From NCBI GenBank assembly GCA_964567555.1, contig CAZMNA010000003.1, forward strand, positions 18,882-82,881: a stretch of 64,000 nucleotides of DNA, read 5' to 3'. The DNA is from an uncultured Candidatus Saccharibacteria bacterium (lineage in GTDB: Bacteria > Patescibacteriota > Saccharimonadia > Saccharimonadales > UBA10212). Made by a program: the position numbers and the translations under genes. Positions 8,430 through 50,420 of the stretch are shown here, one piece after another (position 1 is the stretch's first letter; every line of letters starts with the position of its first letter). The notes under the pieces are model-generated. The model ran no database searches, was not told the DNA's origin, and saw only the letters and a program-made list of their open reading frames with translations.

Positions 8430-8503
8430 TGGGGAGTGGCCAAGTGGTAAGGCACTGGGTTCTGGTCCCAGGATCGGGGGTTCGAGTCCCTCCTCCCCAG
8501 CCA
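8430..8503 (+). tRNA. tRNA-Gln (anticodon CTG), CCA encoded
   Basis: Folded by hand: 7-bp acceptor stem tggggag/ctcccca, anticodon stem ctggg/cccag with loop ttCTGgt, T-arm ggggg-TTCGAGT-ccctc, discriminator G then CCA. Confidence 0.9.
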
Positions 8504-8712: not shown

Positions 8713-9498
8713 CTAGGTATAGAGCCCATGCTCTCTATAGTCTATTCCTTGAGATAGAGTGTGGACGTTAAAGAAGGCTCTAAAAACGACATTATTGGGA
8801 TCGTCCAACTTATCTTCAACCACTGTACCCGCAGATTTTATAAACTGTGTTAAAACCTCTGTGCGCTCCTCTGGAGTGCACCATTCTTGCCAAAGCAAGT
8901 CACCGAAACGCTCTATGTAGTAAGCAATTAACCCATCCTCATTGAGCCAGTGCGTCTCTACCATGCGTGGATCTACATCCATCAAAACAACAGCCTCTTC
9001 GCCAGTCTCTGTCGTAACAAACCGAAACATATCGCGCTGCAAAACTGGGCTATGGATCTTAAGCCCGCCATATCCTCTGAATAGCCTTGGAAGTCTAGCA
9101 GCAAGATCAACTTTAGTTTGGGTCGAGGCTTCTATAATTGGGTGACTATGGGCCAGATATTCGCTAACCATGACAACTGGGTTTTGCGCAACTGAATCGT
9201 AATCGTTTATGGCTATCTCTGTCCTTACAGGCGATATACCGGCCATGCGAAAGGTCTCCTGCATGCAATCCCACACCTCCTCGAAATTACGACCGCACGC
9301 TTCCACCTCATTTACGGCTCGCCGAGTGAAACTTCTAGTAACAAATTGTCTGCCATCCTCCTCTTCAACAAGTTGCAGGAGAATATCTGGAGAGTGAGAA
9401 AGCCTTTCAACCGGCTGCGCTACCTGAATACGCCCACGGATTAGACCGTCTAGGCCATCTACAAATTCTTGGGTAGGATAAATCTCTAGTCCGCTCAT
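8713..9498 (-). CDS. hypothetical protein (261 aa), first gene of the accessory island
   Basis: Long ORF with normal amino-acid composition; no recognisable domain. Confidence 0.5.
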   Translation of the reverse strand: MSGLEIYPTQEFVDGLDGLIRGRIQVAQPVERLSHSPDILLQLVEEEDGRQFVTRSFTRRAVNEVEACGRNFEEVWDCMQETFRMAGISPVRTEIAINDYDSVAQNPVVMVSEYLAHSHPIIEASTQTKVDLAARLPRLFRGYGGLKIHSPVLQRDMFRFVTTETGEEAVVLMDVDPRMVETHWLNEDGLIAYYIERFGDLLWQEWCTPEERTEVLTQFIKSAGTVVEDKLDDPNNVVFRAFFNVHTLSQGIDYREHGLYT

Positions 9499-10768: not shown

Positions 10769-11254
10769 TTAGCTAATCAATTCTTCTAGCTTCGCAAACC
10801 TAACAACTTGCCAAGCCATAGCTTGTGATTCAGTTCTCCGCATGAATTCGCGACTGCTATTTTGGGACAAAATATTCAAACTACCTTCATATAGTATCTT
10901 TCGGTCTATGATAGCTACTTTACGGTGATGTCCTTCAGTGAATATGACCTGTATACCAAGGTGCTGAAGTTGTGATAGTGCTTTTAGGGCATCTAAGCGC
11001 ATAACATCATTATGTTCTTGAGGATCCCTGGTATTTATAGCTACTCTTACTCTCTTTGACTTAGCTCGCTTTAAGGCCGGTAGCAGGCACTTTAGACGTT
11101 TGGAAGTAACAAATGGGCTTTCGATGATTATTTCTGCTCCGGCCTTGTTAATGTCCCGCAAAAGCCTCGGGTAGAATGTATCTTCGTCAAATAACTTTGA
11201 TTCGGATATATCAGATATGCCATTATGAAACCGTTGGAGAAGGCGAGTTATCAT
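10769..11254 (-). CDS. PLD/HKD-family nuclease-like protein (161 aa), paralog 1
   Basis: HRKVAIID = HxKx4D motif followed by GSLNILSQ, Nuc/PLDc_2-like size. Roughly 45% identical to the 17890-18372 product (aligned by eye). Confidence 0.7.
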   Translation of the reverse strand: MITRLLQRFHNGISDISESKLFDEDTFYPRLLRDINKAGAEIIIESPFVTSKRLKCLLPALKRAKSKRVRVAINTRDPQEHNDVMRLDALKALSQLQHLGIQVIFTEGHHRKVAIIDRKILYEGSLNILSQNSSREFMRRTESQAMAWQVVRFAKLEELIS

Positions 11255-11344
11255 GACGCCTCCTCGGTTTGGATAGGTTTTAGGAGTTCTTTGATCGCTT
11301 CTATATCTTCTAATTCATCTAAATCAGTGTCATCGAGAGTTATA

Positions 11345-11902
11345 TTAGCGACCAATCTCTCCAGCCAGGTCGCCCGAGGGCGACCTAAGGGCTAAAAAAA
11401 GTTCATTCACGCCTGTAATCTTGTTAATATCTTGGGTTCCAGAAATTATTTCCTGATAAGTAGGCGCTTTGTCGAATATTACGGCGAAATAACCGGCTCT
11501 AGCCAGCGGATTTATCTGTTCTAACAGTAGATATTCCAGGTGTTCCAGAAAATATCTGACGTATTTCATTATTATGCTTAAATCGAGTGGTTGGTTCATC
11601 TGAGTCTTCTCCTTTTGCTCAGTTAAAGTTGCTATTTGATCTTCGGTTTTAATTAGTTCCTCCTCCATGTACTTAATTGCTGTTGCTGAGCTTAAGACCT
11701 TCATCTTATCCATGATTAGACCTGCCGAGAGTCTTTGCTCCTGTATGCGACCTTCTAAATCAACCTCATCTTGTTTAAGCAGAGCCTGGCGCTTATCCCA
11801 TTCCTTGGATACAGCCTGCTCGAATTCATTGATTCGCTCCGGCGCTACACTCAAACTCTTCACAAAGGCTTCTATAGTCTGATTGAAGTCCTTCCGGGGC
11901 AC
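11345..11902 (-). CDS. hypothetical coiled-coil protein (185 aa, GTG start); possibly the downstream part of a frameshifted avd fusion
   Basis: Overlaps the Avd ORF by 31 nt in the +2 frame. Its N-terminus (RKDFNQTIEAFVKSLSVA) loosely resembles the missing 4HB helix-3 region (..GRrs-KEF..FL.iA.GS); this is the weakest link. The rest is predicted helical and E/K/Q-rich. Confidence 0.45.
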   Translation of the reverse strand: MPRKDFNQTIEAFVKSLSVAPERINEFEQAVSKEWDKRQALLKQDEVDLEGRIQEQRLSAGLIMDKMKVLSSATAIKYMEEELIKTEDQIATLTEQKEKTQMNQPLDLSIIMKYVRYFLEHLEYLLLEQINPLARAGYFAVIFDKAPTYQEIISGTQDINKITGVNELFLALRSPSGDLAGEIGR

Positions 11903-12114
11903 TCGGAAGTAGTGGCCGCGGCAGCCAAAATTGACTCCAGCGCCAACAATACTTCGTTTTGTATTGTAGAGCCCAGCGTATAGCGCTCAGATTTTGGGAA
12001 GTGCTTGAGTTGTTCGTGGAGAAGTTTATATAACTGGTAAAAAGAATGAACAATAGGAATATCGACAGCAGTCCCACCCAGCTTGGTCTTGAACTCGCTG
12101 GTACCGTCCATCAA
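11872..12114 (-). CDS. avd: DGR accessory variability determinant (Avd)-like four-helix-bundle protein, truncated at 80 aa
   Basis: FYQLYKLLHEQLKHFPKSERYTLGSTIQNEVLLALESIL matches helices 1-2 of the 4HB (23S rRNA-IVS protein/Avd) family. The ORF stops where helix 3 should begin and its continuation appears in the overlapping frame. Confidence 0.55.
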   Translation of the reverse strand: MMDGTSEFKTKLGGTAVDIPIVHSFYQLYKLLHEQLKHFPKSERYTLGSTIQNEVLLALESILAAAATTSECPGRTSIRL

Positions 12115-13089
12115 GCTTTGATTTTAGCATCATTTGATCATATTTCCTCTGTTGATAACCTTTTTTCAGCTTGGCAGAGATTTCGTCGTGGCAAGCAATC
12201 ACGCCCAGACGTTTTGGCCTTTGAGAGGAACCTCGAGGACAACATATTCGGCCTTCAAACAGCCTTGAAAAACCGAAGCTATAGGCATGGAGACTATGAG
12301 CCGTTTACCATCTGCGATCCCAAGCAGCGCCAAATTCATAAAGCCACTGTGCGGGACCGAGTTGTCCACCAATTGCTTGTCTCGGCGATCGAACCGTTAT
12401 TTGATAGACACTTCATATATGACAGCTACTCCTGCCGCAAACATAAGGGTACCCACGCGGCAGTCGACCGGTTGAGGACTTTTCTGCGCAAAGCTAGCAA
12501 CAATAACACCAGGCAGGCTTACGCACTTAAACTGGACGTTCATAAATTCTTCGCCTCGGTCGATCATGACATTCTGACAAAGCTCTTAAAGAAACGGCTC
12601 CAAGACCCGCAAATACTGTGGCTACTCGATAAAGTTATAGAAAGTCACGAAGTTACACCAGGCAAAGGTATGCCGCTGGGCAACCTAACTAGCCAGCTAT
12701 TCGCTAACGTCTATATGCACGAGCTGGATTGGTTCGTCAAAAATCAACTGAAAGCTAAATACTACTTACGCTACTGCGATGATTTTATTATTGTCGATAC
12801 TGACCGCGACAAATTGCTTGGTCTTGTGCATCCATTGAGCGAGTTCCTTAACGAGTGTTTGGGTCTACATATTCACCCCCAAAAGATAAGTTTGCGAAGC
12901 TGGAGCCAAGGAGTGGATTTCCTGGGTTATGTATCCAAGCCACACTGTACTCTATTGCGTACTAAAACCCGAAAACGGATGCTGGCTAAAGTGGATTCTC
13001 ATAACCTGCCATCTTATCTAGGTCTATGTTCGCACGCCGACACATATAGGCTGAAGCGGTTAATTCTCAATAAAACAGCCTCTACTTGA
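12046..13089 (+). CDS. diversity-generating retroelement (DGR)-type reverse transcriptase
   Basis: RT motifs 0-7 are present: SAWQRFRRGK, ICDPKQR..DRVVHQ, the DGR-specific PLGNLTSQLFANVYM (I/LGxxxSQ in place of QGxxxSP), YLRYCDDFII and GVDFLGY. At 347 aa it has no maturase/En domains. It overlaps avd head-to-head if it starts at 12046; TTG 12118 is an alternative start. Confidence 0.8.
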   Translation: MNNRNIDSSPTQLGLELAGTVHQALILASFDHISSVDNLFSAWQRFRRGKQSRPDVLAFERNLEDNIFGLQTALKNRSYRHGDYEPFTICDPKQRQIHKATVRDRVVHQLLVSAIEPLFDRHFIYDSYSCRKHKGTHAAVDRLRTFLRKASNNNTRQAYALKLDVHKFFASVDHDILTKLLKKRLQDPQILWLLDKVIESHEVTPGKGMPLGNLTSQLFANVYMHELDWFVKNQLKAKYYLRYCDDFIIVDTDRDKLLGLVHPLSEFLNECLGLHIHPQKISLRSWSQGVDFLGYVSKPHCTLLRTKTRKRMLAKVDSHNLPSYLGLCSHADTYRLKRLILNKTAST

Positions 13090-13216
13090 GGTATGAAAAA
13101 GGGGCGCTAGATCTCACGGCTATAAAACAGCCGAAAAATTTCGCGCCCCTGTGGGGCGGAGGGCCAAGGAACGAATTCCAAGGCCCTCCCAGCCCCTAGG
13201 GACCAAAGTCCCAGTC

Positions 13217-14017
13217 CTACAACTCCCTGACCACCGGAACGGCATAGTCGTCGCTGCGGTCGTCGTCCCAGCTGGCACCCAGGCCGACCTCGCGGTCGAT
13301 CCCGTTCCAGTCGAGGATCGGCACGTCCGCCCAAGCCTCGCTGCCGGGAACGTTGGCCTGAAGGCCAGCTGCCCAGGCGCCCGGAATGGTCTCGTAGTCG
13401 ATGGCCGGCGGATACGCGGGGTGAGCCGCGAAGGCCGACAGGACTTGGAGTCCGGCCGAGTCATCGCCACGAACGTCCTTGGGGGCAGAGCCCCGGTTGG
13501 CCGTCATGTCCAGCTCGACCCACTTGACGCTCGGCTCCTTGCCGTAGCGGTCGGGGTTGAGCAGGCGCAGGTGCTCGGCGTCGGACTTGAGCCCGTCGTA
13601 GCGCCAGTAACCGTTGTCGATGATCTTCTGTTCGTGCTTGATCCAACCGGCCAGAGCCTCGAAGGTGGTCGGCAGGTCGCCGAGCCAGACGTCGAGGGTG
13701 AGCAGGTGGTCGAGCGAGCTGACGTGGTCGGTCGGCATCGTCTGCTTGAGCTGATCGAGCAGATCGGTGACCGGCCAGTCCTGGAACCCCGCGTAGTACG
13801 AGAAGCGACCGAGGATCTCCTCCGGTGTGCTGAAGACCTGCGGGACCGGCGGGACCATCAGGGCGTTGAACGCCTGGCGGTCAATCCGACCGGGATCGCC
13901 CTTCATCAGGGCAGTCAGTAGGTCGAAGTTGTCGACGAGCTTCTGCACGTTGTCACGGCTCTCCTTGCGGAGGTTGTCCGTGATTTCGCTGGCCTGAGCC
14001 ATCGTTGAAGCCGACAT
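13217..14017 (-). CDS. hypothetical protein (266 aa) on a ~65% GC foreign segment
   Basis: AAGGAG RBS 6 nt before the ATG on the minus strand. Diverse W/Y/D-rich composition. The overlapping plus-strand ORF is R/V/G-rich and looks like an antisense artefact. Confidence 0.5.
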   Translation of the reverse strand: MSASTMAQASEITDNLRKESRDNVQKLVDNFDLLTALMKGDPGRIDRQAFNALMVPPVPQVFSTPEEILGRFSYYAGFQDWPVTDLLDQLKQTMPTDHVSSLDHLLTLDVWLGDLPTTFEALAGWIKHEQKIIDNGYWRYDGLKSDAEHLRLLNPDRYGKEPSVKWVELDMTANRGSAPKDVRGDDSAGLQVLSAFAAHPAYPPAIDYETIPGAWAAGLQANVPGSEAWADVPILDWNGIDREVGLGASWDDDRSDDYAVPVVREL

Positions 14018-14274
14018 GCGAACTCCTTTGTCCGTGCCGTAGAGCCTACCCGTTATTCCACACCATAGGAGTGTGGCGAGCCAACCCTATTTGAGAACGG
14101 CGCACCAAAACCGAATGCTTCGGTTACAGAGTGCCATTCTCTTGAGAGAGTCGTAAAACCAATTGTTAAAGAACAGGGCTATTATACTATTTTAACTCTC
14201 GTATGTCAATAAGCTTATGTTAACATTTTCACCTTAAGCGTACAGGCATAGTACCCAGCTGGTAAAATACGTTT

Positions 14275-17889: not shown

Positions 17890-18372
17890 TTACCAATAAA
17901 ACCGTTTCAACTTTAAAAAACTAATCATTTGCCGAGAAAGTTGCTCCGATTCTATACGTCGCATAACTTCACGGCTATGGCTCTGAGACAATATATTAAG
18001 ACTGCCTTCCCATAAAACCCTTTCATCCAGTATTGCGATTTTCCTGTGGTGATAATCATGGAAGAATTTAACTTTAACTCCTATATTCTTTAGCTCTTTT
18101 CTTGCTTGCCATGCCTGGATGCGCAGTAACCTGTCGTGATGGTTGGGGAAGCGAGTGTTTACCCTCACTACCACCCCTTTCTTAACCAACTTGCGGAGGG
18201 CAGGGGAAAGAGTGCGCAATCTACTTGTCGTGATGTATGGACTTTCAATGATAACCTCCTTCTGGCAAGTCTTTAGGTCTTGCAAAAATGCTCTGTAAAA
18301 TGTTCGTTCATCGAACAGATTCGAGGTAAGTAGGTCAGCAGGTGCGACCTTATGGCGCTTAAGACTTATCAT
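17890..18372 (-). CDS. PLD/HKD-family nuclease-like protein (160 aa), paralog 2
   Basis: HRKIAILD HxKx4D motif and GSLNILSQSHSREVMRRIES, nearly identical in arrangement to the 10769-11254 product. Confidence 0.7.
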   Translation of the reverse strand: MISLKRHKVAPADLLTSNLFDERTFYRAFLQDLKTCQKEVIIESPYITTSRLRTLSPALRKLVKKGVVVRVNTRFPNHHDRLLRIQAWQARKELKNIGVKVKFFHDYHHRKIAILDERVLWEGSLNILSQSHSREVMRRIESEQLSRQMISFLKLKRFYW

Positions 18373-32990: not shown

Positions 32991-33635
32991 CTAATTTGCG
33001 ATGGCAGTGTAAAGCACCTGGGTAGAATAGGTGCCACTGGCAACGCTGGTATCGGCGCAAGCACCATACCAAACCGTTGTAGCCACCGCCGGATCCGCCG
33101 CCCCGGAAGTGCTGGCGATGGTGTCGGCAGTCACGTTACTAGCTTTAACGCTAGAAAAAGTTATTGAACCGCGGGCAACATTATCTTGAGTTGTCGTCGG
33201 TCCAGCGCCGAAGCCGCCCAAACCGTCCACGCGGAATCCCCAGCTGTTACCTGACAGCGTAGTTGGGCTGCTGACCGTGCCGCTAGTGGTGGATATGCTT
33301 GATGCACCGTTGACAAGCGACGTGTTAGTACTATTATCCGCCACAGTTAGGGTATAGCCGTCGGTGTCATCAGTTAGCACTGAGGGGCTATCGCTGTGGA
33401 TGGTGCATTTTCCGCTGGTTGTTGGCGTAATGTCCAGGTTCAGGCTACCGTTGCTGGAAAGTGTAATGTCACACTGAACCCCGTACTTGCATGATCCATA
33501 AGTACCGCTGCCGTATGTCCCGGTCGCGTAGTAAGCCAAAACCGCTCCGCTGCCAAGGAATAGACCTAGACAACTCAGCAGGATAGCCAAGATAGCCAGC
33601 CATCCTTTTGAGATTAATTTGAAGAAAGATTTCAT
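32991..33635 (-). CDS. secreted Thr/Ser-rich surface protein, WxL-like (CscB/C-like), paralog 3
   Basis: Signal peptide, NSWGFRVDGLGGF core and GTYSTQVLYTA C-terminus shared with the two proteins encoded upstream. Confidence 0.45.
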   Translation of the reverse strand: MKSFFKLISKGWLAILAILLSCLGLFLGSGAVLAYYATGTYGSGTYGSCKYGVQCDITLSSNGSLNLDITPTTSGKCTIHSDSPSVLTDDTDGYTLTVADNSTNTSLVNGASSISTTSGTVSSPTTLSGNSWGFRVDGLGGFGAGPTTTQDNVARGSITFSSVKASNVTADTIASTSGAADPAVATTVWYGACADTSVASGTYSTQVLYTAIAN

Positions 33636-34561
33636 CCCTTCTTTGGCTCCTTAGCCCTCCGTTTGGATAGGTATCTTGGGCGGATTACAACTAAGAAGAC
33701 AAGTACAATCAGCATCAATGCTAGCGTTATTAGTCTGACGGCAGAAGACATAACCAGAACCCATTTGGTAGGCATGGTCTTTTCTTGGCCTAGGAACTTC
33801 ACGGTACCGGTTACCTTAAAAAGCCCAATGCTAGGGGATTTATTCCAAGGCAGGGTAATCCGGCGAATGGTCTGCGGCAGTAGTTCCTTATCTGTGTTTA
33901 AAGTGTATTTTGGGTGACCAAAGATGTCCTTGATAACATAGGTAATTTGAGTAGGAAAGTGAATGCTACCGTTGTCTTGAATACGCAAGGCTGAAGTTAG
34001 CGGTGGTTTTTGCAGGATGCCCGAGCTCCAGCTGAGTAAACTGCCCTTTTTTACGACCGGCCCAGCTACCTGTATGTAGAAAAGTTCACCGACTCGTTCG
34101 TTTAGTGTGACGCCGTTAGTCTTGGCGGCAATCTGAGTTTCGGCAAAAGCCGCTGCGTAGTACCCTCCCGGTAGCGTGTTCTGGGGCACAGATATGGTGT
34201 AGTTTATTGTGACGGATTGTCCTGGCTTAATGTATCCGCCCGGCACCGAAAAGTTCAACCAACTGCCGGCATCGGGTGCAGTTGGCAAAAATGTAAATTC
34301 TGGAGTGTAATCCTCGCCGCTTACCCTGTAAGGAGTTGGATAAGCCAAAAATTTGTAACTGCTACTGCCCTGATCAAGCACCTGAAACGAGCCTTTATAG
34401 GTACCGCCCGGGTCTATCACTGGGCTGACTGAAGTTGGGGTTATGGTGATAACCTGCGGAATGGCATGTGCTACCGCTGGCGCTAAGCCAAAAGCCGACA
34501 AAAATATCAAAAAAGTCGTGAATTGCTTTTTGTAGGTTCGCGAAATTGTCATGCCAAACAT
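33632..34561 (-). CDS. DUF916/CscA-like cell-surface protein with C-terminal membrane anchor
   Basis: Signal peptide, ~250-aa beta-rich domain, C-terminal TM helix then RPRYLSKRRAKEPKK. Genomically linked to the WxL-like genes. Confidence 0.5.
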   Translation of the reverse strand: MFGMTISRTYKKQFTTFLIFLSAFGLAPAVAHAIPQVITITPTSVSPVIDPGGTYKGSFQVLDQGSSSYKFLAYPTPYRVSGEDYTPEFTFLPTAPDAGSWLNFSVPGGYIKPGQSVTINYTISVPQNTLPGGYYAAAFAETQIAAKTNGVTLNERVGELFYIQVAGPVVKKGSLLSWSSGILQKPPLTSALRIQDNGSIHFPTQITYVIKDIFGHPKYTLNTDKELLPQTIRRITLPWNKSPSIGLFKVTGTVKFLGQEKTMPTKWVLVMSSAVRLITLALMLIVLVFLVVIRPRYLSKRRAKEPKKG

Positions 34562-34562
34562 T

Positions 34563-35174
34563 CTAATTTGTGGTTGCAGTGTAGGTTACGCTATCGGTGT
34601 AAGTTCCAGAAGGCTGAGTGGAGTCAACAGCTGCGGCGTACCAAACGGTAGTTGTATCACTTGAAGCTGTGCCGGAGGTAGACTTTAGCGTGTTGGCTGA
34701 GCCAGAAGCTGGCATGCCGGCAAATTTTAGCGTACCGCTGACTGCCGCGCTACTGGCACCAGCGTAACCGCTGCCGTTGAAGCCGCCTAAACTTTGGACG
34801 GCATAGCCCCATGTGTTAGCTGCCATCACTACTGGAGTTGTTTGCGTCCCGGAAGAGGCGGCAATACTATTGCCGCCAGACACCAAGGTTGTGGTGGCAT
34901 CGCCATCCTGCAAAGTCAGGGCATAGCCGGATGAATCGTTTGTGCTAACTGTAACGGTATCGCTAGCGATGGTCTGTTTTGTTGAGCCGGCAGCTGGAGT
35001 AATGTTAAGATTAACCGTTCCACTAGTAGTAAAAAGACTAATAATTGGGCTGATAACTGAGCTTATTGTGGTAGAAGCCGTATCTGCAGATACGATAGCC
35101 GTAGTCCCGACCATAACTCCCACGCTGAGCAGGGTAACAATACCTACGCGTATGTATTTCAAATCTTCCCTCAT
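34563..35174 (-). CDS. secreted Thr/Ser-rich WxL-like surface protein, paralog 2
   Basis: Roughly 80% identical to the 35254-35877 product; signal peptide present. Confidence 0.5.
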   Translation of the reverse strand: MREDLKYIRVGIVTLLSVGVMVGTTAIVSADTASTTISSVISPIISLFTTSGTVNLNITPAAGSTKQTIASDTVTVSTNDSSGYALTLQDGDATTTLVSGGNSIAASSGTQTTPVVMAANTWGYAVQSLGGFNGSGYAGASSAAVSGTLKFAGMPASGSANTLKSTSGTASSDTTTVWYAAAVDSTQPSGTYTDSVTYTATTN

Positions 35175-35253
35175 TATTAATCATTACGATTATGATATCA
35201 ACACAATATAAAACGGTACGTGCCGCGCTGGAAACCATAGAGCTTTGACGAGT

Positions 35254-35877
35254 CTAATTTGTCGTTGCGGTGTAAGTTACGCTGTCGGTGTAGGTTCCAG
35301 TGGCTTGAGTAGTATCGACAGCCACAGCGTACCAAACGGTTGTTGTATCACTTGAGGCGACGCCGGCGGTAGTCTTAAGCGTGTTGGGCGAAGCTGAAGA
35401 CGGTACGCCGGCAAACTTTAGAGTGCCACTAACGGCCGCGCTACTGGCTGACCCGTAACCGCTTGCGTTAAAACCACCAACTCCAGCCACAGCATAACCC
35501 CAAGTGTTGGTAGCTTCTGGGGTAGTCGGAGAACTCTGCGTCCCTGCCGAAGCCGCAATGTTATTGCCGCCGGAAACCAGGTTGGTATTGGTGTCGCCGT
35601 CTGCCAGAGTTAGTGCATAGCCAGATGCATCGTTAGTACTAACTGTAACCGTATCACTAGCGATGGTCTGTTTTGTTGAGCCAGCAGCTGGAGTCACGTT
35701 AACATTAACCGTGCCGCTGGTAGTAAATAGGCTAATAATCGGGGAGACTACCGAACTTATCGTCGTATTGGCCGTATCGGCACTCACAACAGCCGTCGAT
35801 AACATAAAGGCCGATGCGATTCCGCCGGCAATCGCCACAAGCCTTACTCTTTTGAAGAGATTTTTATTTTGTTTCAT
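35254..35877 (-). CDS. secreted Thr/Ser-rich WxL-like surface protein, paralog 1
   Basis: Signal peptide; same architecture as 34563-35174, a tandem duplicate. Confidence 0.5.
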   Translation of the reverse strand: MKQNKNLFKRVRLVAIAGGIASAFMLSTAVVSADTANTTISSVVSPIISLFTTSGTVNVNVTPAAGSTKQTIASDTVTVSTNDASGYALTLADGDTNTNLVSGGNNIAASAGTQSSPTTPEATNTWGYAVAGVGGFNASGYGSASSAAVSGTLKFAGVPSSASPNTLKTTAGVASSDTTTVWYAVAVDTTQATGTYTDSVTYTATTN

Positions 35878-36751: not shown

Positions 36752-37894
36752 ATGGCTGTTTGGCCTAGTGGTAACGGTGTACAAAACCAGACCGCAGGGA
36801 TAGGCTACACTTGGGTAGCCCCGGCTGGTGTTACTAAATTAACTGTTGAGCTATGGGGTTCGGGCGCTGGTGGTGACGGCGGATTACTCGCTAATGTTAA
36901 TGGGGGTTGGGGCGGTGGCGGTGGCGAGTATCGTAGCTCTGTAATTACAAATATAGTACCTGGTCATACTTATACGATAACTGTTGGTGCTAAAGGTACG
37001 GCTGGTGGTGCTTCCGGTGGAAGTGGTGGTCAAGGTAACGACAGTACATTCTCAGACCCGACACCGACAATTCTAGTTGCAGCCAAAGCCGGCAACAACT
37101 CTGCGAACAGTAGCACAGGCGGTACGGGCGGAACTGGCACAACTGGTTTTCACGGCGGTAATGGATTTCAAACTGCCGTTAATGCCGGTGGTGGTGGTGG
37201 TGGCTCGGGTGGGACTGGTGCCGTTGGACATAACGCCACAAGTGCTACGGGTGCAACTGCTGTTACTGGAGGTGGTAATGGTGGTACTGGTGGGACTGGT
37301 GCTGTTGGGGCCGCTCCTACTACGCCCCCGGGTGGTGGTGGCGGTGGTGGTGCTGCGTCGGGCAACAAGGCAGGTGGAGCTGGCGCTGCTGGGGCAGGCA
37401 CACTAACTTGGCCAACTGTTTTTACTGTAACTTTTAACGCAAACAGTGGCTCAGGCTCAATGAGCGCCGAACAAAACAACCAAGCCGCCGCCCTAACTTC
37501 TAACGCGTATACAAGAACTGGGTACACCTTTGCTAACTGGAACACGGTGGCTGGTGGAGGGGGTACAACTTATGCTAACGGTGCAAGCTATGCGTTTACT
37601 GCCAGCACCACACTTTATGCCCAGTGGACTATCAATTCTTACGATGTAATATTCAACAACAATGGTGGTACAGGTTCAATGTCGAACGAAACTAAGAACT
37701 ACAACACTACGAACGCTCTTACAACCAATACCTTTACAAGAACTGGATATACCTTTACAGGCTGGAATACCGTCGCCGATGGGTCAGGCACAGCTTACGC
37801 AGATGGCGCTAACTTTACTTGGCCTGCCTCTAACACTACCCTCTATGCTCAATGGCTTGTGGCAAATACAACGGGCATATTGGCTGTCATGTAA
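36752..37894 (+). CDS. glycine-rich protein with two C-terminal Listeria-Bacteroides (Flg_new) repeats
   Basis: VELWGSGAGGDGG..GGGGGEY Gly-rich N-terminal domain. Two ~70-aa repeats FTVTFNANSGSGSM..FTRTGYTF.GWNTVA.G.GT.YA.GA.....TLYAQW match the Flg_new consensus. Confidence 0.6.
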   Translation: MAVWPSGNGVQNQTAGIGYTWVAPAGVTKLTVELWGSGAGGDGGLLANVNGGWGGGGGEYRSSVITNIVPGHTYTITVGAKGTAGGASGGSGGQGNDSTFSDPTPTILVAAKAGNNSANSSTGGTGGTGTTGFHGGNGFQTAVNAGGGGGGSGGTGAVGHNATSATGATAVTGGGNGGTGGTGAVGAAPTTPPGGGGGGGAASGNKAGGAGAAGAGTLTWPTVFTVTFNANSGSGSMSAEQNNQAAALTSNAYTRTGYTFANWNTVAGGGGTTYANGASYAFTASTTLYAQWTINSYDVIFNNNGGTGSMSNETKNYNTTNALTTNTFTRTGYTFTGWNTVADGSGTAYADGANFTWPASNTTLYAQWLVANTTGILAVM

Positions 37895-45412: not shown

Positions 45413-45483
45413 AATTCAAGCATGGCACGCACTATATACGGATGCAAGCATAAGCACGCGCAAAATAAGCGGGCCGGGATATG

Positions 45484-45516
45484 TATAAAGAACGCACGCG
45501 CGTGGGGTGAAACAGG
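45484..45516 (+). repeat. intergenic repeat copy 1 (TATAAAG-AACGCACGCGCGTGGGGTGaAACAG)
   Basis: Near-identical to copies at 46262, 47345 and 48114. Contains the 10-bp perfect palindrome CACGCGCGTG. Confidence 0.8.
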
Positions 45517-46246: not shown

Positions 46247-46261
46247 AAGCGGGCGGTGTTA

Positions 46262-46297
46262 TAGTGAAAGAACGCACGCGCGTGGGGTGGAACAGAT
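46262..46297 (+). repeat. intergenic repeat copy 2
   Basis: ATAGTGAAAGAACGCACGCGCGTGGGGTGGAACAGAT; sits between two convergent genes. Confidence 0.8.
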
Positions 46298-47274: not shown

Positions 47275-47344
47275 TCGGGATATTATAAACTCTTATTGCA
47301 AAAAATCAATAATCCCTACGTCCGACAGCTCTGAAGAACCCCCA

Positions 47345-47389
47345 GGCGGGTTATATATATAAAAGGCGCGCGCGTGGGGTGGAACAGAT
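47345..47389 (+). repeat. intergenic repeat copy 3
   Basis: GGCGGGTTATATATATAAAAGGCGCGCGCGTGGGGTGGAACAGAT. Confidence 0.8.
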
Positions 47390-48064: not shown

Positions 48065-48113
48065 AAGATAACAATTTAGAGGTTATAGTGCAAGCATGAG
48101 CAGGGTAAAGAGC

Positions 48114-48150
48114 ATATATAAGGAACGTGTGCGCGTGGGGTGGAACAGAT
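48114..48150 (+). repeat. intergenic repeat copy 4
   Basis: ATATATAAGGAACGTGTGCGCGTGGGGTGGAACAGAT. Confidence 0.8.
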
Positions 48151-50007: not shown

Positions 50008-50284
50008 GATGAGCTCCTTAATTGGTGCATTAATTATAGCAGTGTCTGTTGGCCTAGCTGCGGCGGCGGAGATTGCTACCAAGCCAACAACGTACAAGGA
50101 CAAAATCGCCAGGGGTCTGGGCCCATCCGTAGCCACTGGCGCCACGGCTACAAACCATAGAATCATCCCCGCAAGCTCTACCTGCTTTTAAATATGGCAA
50201 AGATCGCCCGCTTAAGGACAAAAGCCCTATCAATAAATGGCCTAGAATGGCCTGTTATAATGGTTGAGTAATTTGACAACTAAA

Positions 50285-50420
50285 AATATCAAGAGAGCAG
50301 CGAGGGATCTAGCCCAACGACCTGCCAGCAACCTAGCGTTCTTGCCAAGGTGCTAAGCCTAGCCCAAACGGGAAGGATAAAATCGATGAATCCTTTCCTT
50401 GCCAGAAAGGATTTTTATTT
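50285..50420 (+). promoter_or_regulatory. SAM-I (S-box) riboswitch with an intrinsic terminator that sequesters the metK SD
   Basis: ATCAAGAGAGCAGCGAGGGATCTAGCCCAACGACCTGCCAGCAACC..GGTGCTAAGCC matches the SAM-I core (AUCAAGAGAGG.GGAGGGA.UGGCCC..GCAACC..GGUGCUAA). Hairpin tcctttc/gaaagga plus T8 lies at 50391-50420, immediately before the metK ATG. Confidence 0.75.

Follow-up and report, generated by a model that had tools for sequence, protein, structure and literature searches.

An intact reverse transcriptase and target gene beside a truncated avd: a diversity-generating retroelement of an uncultured Saccharibacteria bacterium that has probably lost its template

In the diversity-generating retroelement (DGR) of Bordetella phage, the reverse transcriptase (RT) and Avd copy the RNA of a template repeat (TR) into adenine-mutagenized cDNA, which replaces a variable repeat (VR). 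The DNA analyzed here, 64,000 nucleotides of an uncultured Candidatus Saccharibacteria bacterium (contig CAZMNA010000003.1 of assembly GCA_964567555.1, positions 18,882 to 82,881; hereafter the window), contains a DGR-type RT gene, part of an avd gene and, directly after the RT gene, a gene that ends in a VR. The closest relative, locus L001, whose intact allele is present in SRR21686417, encodes an RT that is 97% identical to that of the window and is itself part of a complete DGR. The features of the window locus are as follows.

11345-11920, minus strand: 3' remnant of a large serine recombinase gene, encoding the coiled-coil C-terminal part without the catalytic domains and the zinc ribbon
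11914-11920: putative deletion junction, GGCCGCG, which serves both as Ala codons of avd and as Arg-Gly of RGHYFRV in the recombinase frame, from direct reading of the sequence
11912-12114, minus strand: avd remnant, codons 1-67 of 129, by homology to the L001 Avd
12118-13089, plus strand: DGR RT gene, apparently intact, with a likely TTG start at 12118 in an open reading frame (ORF) open from the ATG at 12046
13144-13158, minus strand: terminator-like hairpin and T-run after the target gene, a pattern match from a consensus scan only
13199-13212, minus strand: GC hairpin GGGAC-TTTG-GTCCC, 12 nt beyond the VR end, from direct reading
13217-14017, minus strand: DGR target gene, 266 aa, without a Pfam family; its C-terminal domain is C-type-lectin-like
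13224-13350, minus strand: VR, by its match to the L001 TR at 9314-9440

The motifs PLGNLTSQLFANVY (including LGNLTSQ) and YCDD are readable in the translation of the ORF at 12046-13089 (plus strand), in agreement with an earlier note on this DNA, which had described an RT with the [I/L]GxxxSQ motif. The protein matches Pfam RVT_1 with an E-value of 1.7e-25 and the phage RT family phrog_1423 with 8e-109. Its closest solved structure is 8ub7_A, a 328-aa RT chain listed simply as "Reverse transcriptase", which we take to be the bRT of Bordetella phage; the match covers nearly the full length (5.2e-44), with group II intron RT structures far behind at approximately 1e-16. A search of the PDB with the full-length L001 Avd gave no sequence match at E up to 0.01 and thereby left 8ub7 unconfirmed as a bRT-Avd complex. 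Homologs of the RT are very numerous: 7,621 matches were obtained at E up to 1e-10, many of them named Patescibacteria or Saccharimonadales. Judged from the motif, the structure match and the occurrence of the 11 closest examined relatives in complete DGRs, the protein is a genuine DGR RT. The TTG at 12118 is favored as its start because residue 6 of the protein begun there aligns with residue 9 of 8ub7_A, and because the avd and RT gene calls of the relatives lie 0-10 nt apart. With this start, avd and RT are indeed arranged head to head, as had been noted, and are separated by 3-6 nt without overlap.

Two other assignments of the RT were considered and rejected. As a defense RT (Drt2-5, AbiA, or retron) it falls far below the NCBIfam cut-offs: 70 bits against 200 for Drt3a, 55 against 390 for Drt2, 47 against 235 for retron St85, and 22 against 250 for AbiA. 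Its PADLOC matches are generic RT-domain matches, and no Rfam retron or RT motif reaches the gathering score in the window. As a group II intron RT or maturase it reaches 145 bits with TIGR04416 (cut-off 300), which covers the RT part alone, and there is no group II intron Rfam match in the window.

The 80-aa ORF at 11872-12114 (minus strand), read in the earlier note as a divergent Avd, does match Avd models: NF033474 with an E-value of 3e-6 and phrog_3206, "Avd protein of DGR," with 8.6e-9. It is truncated rather than divergent. Pfam bAvd gives 20 bits (cut-off 40) and covers only positions 5-50 of the 107-position profile, whereas the 129-aa Avds of L001 and L002 score 64-66 bits, above the Pfam threshold, over positions 3-106. 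The window protein is the same as the L001 Avd at 65 of the first 67 residues, as far as ...ESIL(A/T)AAA (...ESILAAAA in the window). Past codon 67 the frame runs through 12-13 foreign codons, TTSECPGRTSIRL, to a stop at 11872. The 80-aa ORF is thus a fusion artifact of a deletion and not a conserved protein, and a complete Avd, a four-helix bundle of ~110-130 aa, is absent from the window.

Eleven relatives with complete DGRs were examined (L001, L002, L016, L020, L026, L032, L040, L042, L047, L048, and L049), with RT identities to the window of 56-97% (97% for L001, 71% for L002/L003, and 56-71% for the ten others). All 11 have the order TR-(avd)-RT, avd and RT starts that adjoin each other, a TR no more than 500 nt from avd and RT, and TR/VR mismatches that fall entirely or mostly at adenines of the TR. 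The L001 TR (9314-9440) is rich in AAC codons and differs from its own VR at 16 positions, 16/16 at TR adenines; the corresponding count is 14/14 in L002, and adenine-only counts among the relatives include 21/21, 19/19, and 18/18. The module of L001 and of L002/L003 consists, as in the window, of avd (minus strand), RT (plus strand) and a gene of 266-267 aa (minus strand). This sub-lineage of L001, L002 and the window has its target downstream of the RT and convergent with it, whereas in most other relatives the target lies upstream of the TR. The earlier note had considered the head-to-head layout unusual; it corresponds instead to the B3 architecture of the literature, TR-(avd)-RT with a reverse-strand avd, which accounts for 90% of the DGRs found in candidate phyla radiation (CPR) bacteria (Wu et al. 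2018, Nucleic Acids Res 46:11, PMC5758913), and it is present in 11/11 relatives.

L048 carries tandem targets, with VRs at 365-496 and 1384-1513 that correspond to a single TR and differ from it by 16/16 and 17/17 mismatches at adenines, respectively.

The gene that begins 128 nt downstream of the RT, on the minus strand, is the DGR target, because its segment 13224-13350, the last 42 codons, matches the L001 TR with adenine-biased mismatches. The two are 85.8% identical, with 15 of 18 mismatches at TR adenines (35 adenines in 127 nt; binomial P = 1.3e-6). Past diversification has therefore left an adenine-specific mark on the VR. In comparison with L001, the VR has a dN/dS of 2.85 and the remainder of the target one of 0.21. 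The C-terminal domain of the target matches C-type-lectin-like domains and TvpA, so that the locus has a lectin-fold target with a C-terminal VR; the family is small, with 28 members. It had been stated that no lectin-like target occurs within ~10 kb, which was mistaken: the VR-bearing target is the next gene. VR and TR share the common end ...GTTCCGGTGGTCAGGGA and diverge after it. The hairpin GGGAC-TTTG-GTCCC follows the VRs of the window, L001 and L002 and is absent after the TRs of L001 and L002, so that a GC-rich VR end resembling an initiation of mutagenic homing (IMH) site, with a hairpin missing after the TR, is readable in the sequence, as in other DGRs.

The target gene has a GC content of 65% and a GC content at third codon positions (GC3) of 87%, in a window of 49.6% GC in which housekeeping genes have a GC3 of ~50-59% and the adjacent RT gene 50%. 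The same is seen in eight relatives from different genomes (L001, L002, L026, L040, L042, L047, L048, and L049), with a target GC3 of 77-92% and an RT GC3 of 37-56%. Loci with high-GC3 targets are 45-55% GC overall, and the GC3 excess is not confined to the VR.

The TR itself is missing from the vicinity of the RT. Every ungapped diagonal of the 64 kb was scanned on both strands in 60-nt windows at an identity of at least 72%, and again with A or T in one copy taken as a wildcard; neither self-scan revealed a TR/VR pair in the window. Blastn with a relative's TR and an nhmmer TR profile found only 13224-13350 and no second TR-like copy in the 64 kb, and tblastn found no second RT, avd or target there. 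That no TR/VR pair is visible, as first remarked, is thus borne out by self-repeat scans, blastn and nhmmer alike. A TR/VR pair nevertheless once existed and the TR has since been lost, because the VR differs from the orthologous L001 TR mostly at adenines. Scans of genome contigs with patterns for the TR and VR 3' ends, and with the target-family alignment, gave no match; apparently neither this target family nor the genome of the window is among the GTDB representatives.

The only long imperfect repeat of the window, 34562-35102 against 35253-35796 (77-78% identical), was rejected as a TR/VR pair: it consists of tandem paralogs with substitutions of all types.

The position of the loss was located by comparison with L001. 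In blastn, the stretch colinear between the two is limited to L001 9667-11973 and window 11910-14214 (92.7% DNA identity), and the L001 TR at 9314-9440 matches the reverse strand of window 13224-13350. Left of ~11912, inside avd, the window has no similarity to L001. The left flank reads instead as a recombinase remnant; at the junction, avd codon 67 is therefore fused to the mid-part of a gene for a large serine recombinase. The 185-aa ORF of the remnant occupies 11345-11902. Its homologs are longer at the N terminus by ~35 residues, which include a zinc-ribbon motif of the form CxxC...HC (MCPECEKPL...YHCNKRGHYFRVPKKDF), and give weak Zn_ribbon_recom matches (E ~0.04); in L034 the homolog P0150 lies directly after an ORF with Resolvase and Recombinase domains. 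Translated in the recombinase frame over the junction, the window reads ...GC followed by RGHYFRVPRKDF, and further as ...GC followed by RGHYFRVPRKDFNQTIE..., where homologs show HCNKRGHYFRVPKKDF. Because GGCCGCG can be assigned to both parents, a microhomology-mediated deletion is suggested; the 7-nt microhomology is inferred from the window and the recombinase homologs.

The junction is base-for-base identical in ERZ27245408, ERZ27245399, ERZ27245400, and ERZ27245401 (ENA assemblies of different samples) and in SRR8464959 (Logan). The VR is identical in four of these five assemblies, those that cover it. The only two differences seen among the assemblies, at 11325 and 11822 in L007, lie outside the VR.

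Profile searches with nhmmer, used for both the TR and its flank, revealed a conserved non-coding domain of ~235 nt directly 5' of the TR, on the TR/RT strand, in 11/11 intact relatives; the domain was not found in the 64 kb of the window. Its positions are as follows.

L001: 9083-9318 (TR 9314-9440, stem-loop 9456-9485)
L002: 9311-9546
L016: 4560-4797
L020: 5667-5898
L026: 5988-6242
L032: 5570-5821
L040: 2671-2909
L042: 2691-2889
L047: 1799-1982
L048: 1619-1869
L049: 1665-1917

In the alignments a TAnAAT (-10-like) box lies 7-9 nt upstream of the domain. A stem-loop, which usually carries a T-run, comes after the TR in most relatives; that of L001 scores as terminator-like. RNAalifold applied to seven sequences predicted 66 pairs, 38 of them with compensatory changes. 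Paired cells amount to 93.9%, against 79.7 ± 1.2% in shuffles (0/500 reach the observed value) and no more than 50% with slid partners, in a test whose structure came from the same alignment that was tested. With 11 sequences and the TR included, RNAalifold predicts a long-range duplex of UUCGAGUACUCC in the domain with GGGACUACUCGAA in the 3' flank of the TR. This duplex covaries, from UUCGAG/CUCGAA to GAUGGG/CCCAUC and from GAGUA/UACUC to GAGCA/UGCUC. A second predicted duplex directly adjoins the first and pairs the domain strand that follows with ~10 nt just 5' of the TR.

The Sp RNA of the Bordetella DGR forms the same two adjacent duplexes, with Sp located 3' of the TR, and the survey of other DGRs in that study was restricted to the 40 nt before and the 100 nt after the TR (Handa et al., bioRxiv 10.1101/2023.10.23.563531). 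The modeled pairing suggests that B3-type DGRs may carry a permuted DGR RNA with an Sp-like domain 5' of the TR. It is possible, although we would lean slightly against assuming it, that the deletion removed a self-contained DGR RNA gene of ~400 nt (TAnAAT box, domain, TR and stem-loop) that is both real and undescribed. We found no published description of the 5' domain in a literature on CPR DGRs that was covered incompletely, and when the L001 TR region was compared with Rfam at E up to 1, two chance-level matches were all that emerged. A scan of viral contigs with the RNA-domain motif returned five loci; the four that were aligned proved to be chance matches, the fifth, L039, not being aligned.

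From these comparisons, the intact form of the element would read, on the plus strand, as a promoter, the structured RNA domain of ~235 nt, the 127-nt TR and a stem-loop with a T-run, continuing with avd on the opposite strand, the RT gene (plus strand) 3-6 nt from the avd start, and the target (minus strand) with the VR at its 3' end. The A-only differences between TR and VR would indicate that copying proceeds in this lineage as it does in the Bordetella phage, each replacement of the VR rewriting ~16 codons of a lectin-like binding surface. One deletion would then have joined avd codon 67 to the middle of the large serine recombinase gene, apparently via the 7-nt microhomology, taking avd codons 68-129 (62 in all), the TR and the RNA domain next to it, and leaving the RT and target genes intact. 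Lacking a template and a working Avd, the element would hold the lectin-like tip of its target in the state last reached.

The locus is therefore very probably a decaying, template-less DGR of the CPR type, ordinary in kind. Its anatomy, the missing parts and the adenine imprint can be read from the sequences, whereas loss of activity and removal in a single event are deductions. Several observations weigh against this account or limit it. Three of the 18 differences between the VR and the L001 TR lie at non-adenine positions. The RT ORF is uninterrupted with a dN/dS of 0.07 against L001, and the target, also intact, has the 0.21 given above; the loss would thus be recent or the RT still in use, two cases that dN/dS against L001 cannot separate, as most of the divergence may predate the deletion. 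The identity of the VR among assemblies fits a frozen VR, but low-level heterogeneity is invisible in a consensus. Finally, the searchable part is 64 kb of a genome with contigs of up to 734 kb, and a template could lie elsewhere.

As an alternative, the DGR might still be active, its RT being supplied with TR RNA and complete Avd from genes in another part of the genome. In favor of this are the intact RT and target ORFs under purifying selection and the confinement of the search to 64 kb; TR and RT need no co-transcription, and some lineages have remote targets (Wu et al., PMC5758913). Such remote arrangements have been reported for other lineages and not for CPR DGRs, 11/11 relatives have the TR at most 500 nt from avd and RT, and the break here is inside avd itself; together with the lack of a second avd, RT or TR in the window and the identical VR of four assemblies, this makes continued activity improbable. 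Of the three options left by the earlier note, it is that of an orphan or decaying DGR that stands: a target outside the window is contradicted by the one 128 nt from the RT, and the third, co-option, is not upheld, as the PLD-family genes on which it drew are not conserved.

That third option, in which the RT and the Avd fragment have been recruited to another role such as phage defense with the flanking PLD-family nucleases, draws on two PLDc_2 genes with domain-level similarity to the defense proteins MkoC and DrmC (10769-11254 and 17890-18372) and on the resemblance of the region to a decayed mobile island beside the tRNA-Gln gene at 8430-8503. We regard it as very unlikely: the RT shares 97% identity with one from a complete DGR and 56-71% with ten more, it scores far below the defense RT cut-offs (as with the 70 bits against 200 for Drt3a), the 80-aa ORF is a product of the deletion and not a conserved protein, no PLD gene is found beside the RT in L002, L040, L042, L044, L047, L048, and L049, and the exact arrangement of truncated avd, RT and PLD gene has so far not been seen across divergent genomes. 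Least probable of all is that the junction is an artifact of a chimeric contig and that the real genome retains an intact avd and TR. The window does derive from metagenome assemblies and the junction does lie in a short GC-rich, repeat-like string, but the same junction recurs in the four ENA assemblies of different samples and in the Logan assembly SRR8464959, and a 734-kb JGI contig holds both the RT and a protein of the 90%-identity cluster of the 185-aa remnant. This RT is also present on ENA contigs of 321 and 180 kb. A decaying DGR without a template is thus the explanation we retain.

The flanking PLD nucleases mentioned in the earlier note are real, as the domains are present at both positions. 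The two genes are paralogous and bracket an island.

10769-11254, minus strand: PLD-family gene (Nuc-like, PLDc_2), 160-161 aa
17890-18372, minus strand: PLD-family gene (Nuc-like, PLDc_2), 160-161 aa

They are not conserved partners of the RT, because they are absent next to it in seven relatives, and they appear to be tied to the mobile island and not to the DGR. The island starts at tRNA-Gln and contains the recombinase remnant and hypothetical genes; the L001 neighborhood that corresponds to it carries a type IV secretion/conjugation cluster. The second PLD gene and the 66-aa ORF that follows it are 88.8% identical in DNA to L001 16467-17246, and L009 has a similar pair of PLD gene and small ORF ~3 kb from another recombinase C-terminal remnant. 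ERZ27245399 (L005 9413-11408) is identical to the window down to 8491 and then continues with PLDc_2, helix-turn-helix (HTH) and Tad4 genes. Beyond 8491 the window instead has tRNA-Gln, superoxide dismutase (SOD) and TrmD genes, pointing to strain-level variation of the island or a contig join at the tRNA.

Three further features lie elsewhere in the window. The tandem paralogs at 34563-35174 and 35254-35877 (both minus strand) encode Thr/Ser-rich proteins of 203 and 207 aa with signal peptides, are ~78% identical in DNA, and belong to a cluster that also encodes additional secreted proteins (32991-34561) and, at 36752-37894, a Gly-rich repeat protein. An intergenic motif of 49 nt occurs four times (45467-45515, 46247-46295, 47339-47387, and 48100-48148) at a spacing of 761-1092 nt; it ends GCGCGTGGGGTG(G/A)AACAG after a TATA-rich stretch, and each copy lies between genes of unknown function. 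A SAM riboswitch (RF00162) is found at 50283-50383 (plus strand) with 52 bits, above the gathering score.

The odd-looking pair of RT and Avd would accordingly represent neither a new defense system nor a new DGR layout. It is in all probability a standard CPR DGR caught while decaying, its lesion located to within a few bases. Scanners that need a TR/VR pair will overlook such loci, and their targets will then pass for hypothetical genes with a frozen, once-hypervariable tip. The analysis also contributes a small family of targets that have a lectin-like fold and no Pfam entry. The 5' RNA domain, if indeed undescribed, would provide a testable model for the priming of reverse transcription in the commonest DGR architecture of the CPR.

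Among known systems, the B3 DGRs of the ultra-small CPR bacteria are the nearest: they share the layout of the closest relatives, a single target with a C-terminal VR, and, going by the names of RT homologs, CPR/Patescibacteria hosts, and the window copy differs from them in being without the TR and the 3' half of avd. A DGR clade restricted to Patescibacteria, "DGR clade 2," has been described (Roux et al. 2021, PMC8144416), and the RT lineage of the window probably belongs to it. More than half of the GenBank candidates for DGRs were discarded as inactivated on account of stops, truncations, or poor TR-VR matches (Wu et al., PMC5758913). The window would be one such case with its lesion mapped; it differs from them in that RT and target are intact and that the cause, one deletion, can be read from a 97%-identical relative. 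For the target, the closest known systems are TvpA of Treponema denticola and other DGR variable proteins with a C-type-lectin/formylglycine-generating enzyme (FGE) fold. The characterized prototype, the DGR of Bordetella phage BPP-1 (mtd-avd-TR-brt), resembles the present one in its Avd partner, its adenine-specific changes from TR to VR, its lectin-fold target with a C-terminal VR and the GC hairpin after the VR. In BPP-1, however, the genes are co-directional and the structured Sp RNA lies 3' of the TR, whereas the present lineage has an inverted avd and a structured RNA that is predicted 5' of the TR, and in the window that RNA has been lost altogether.

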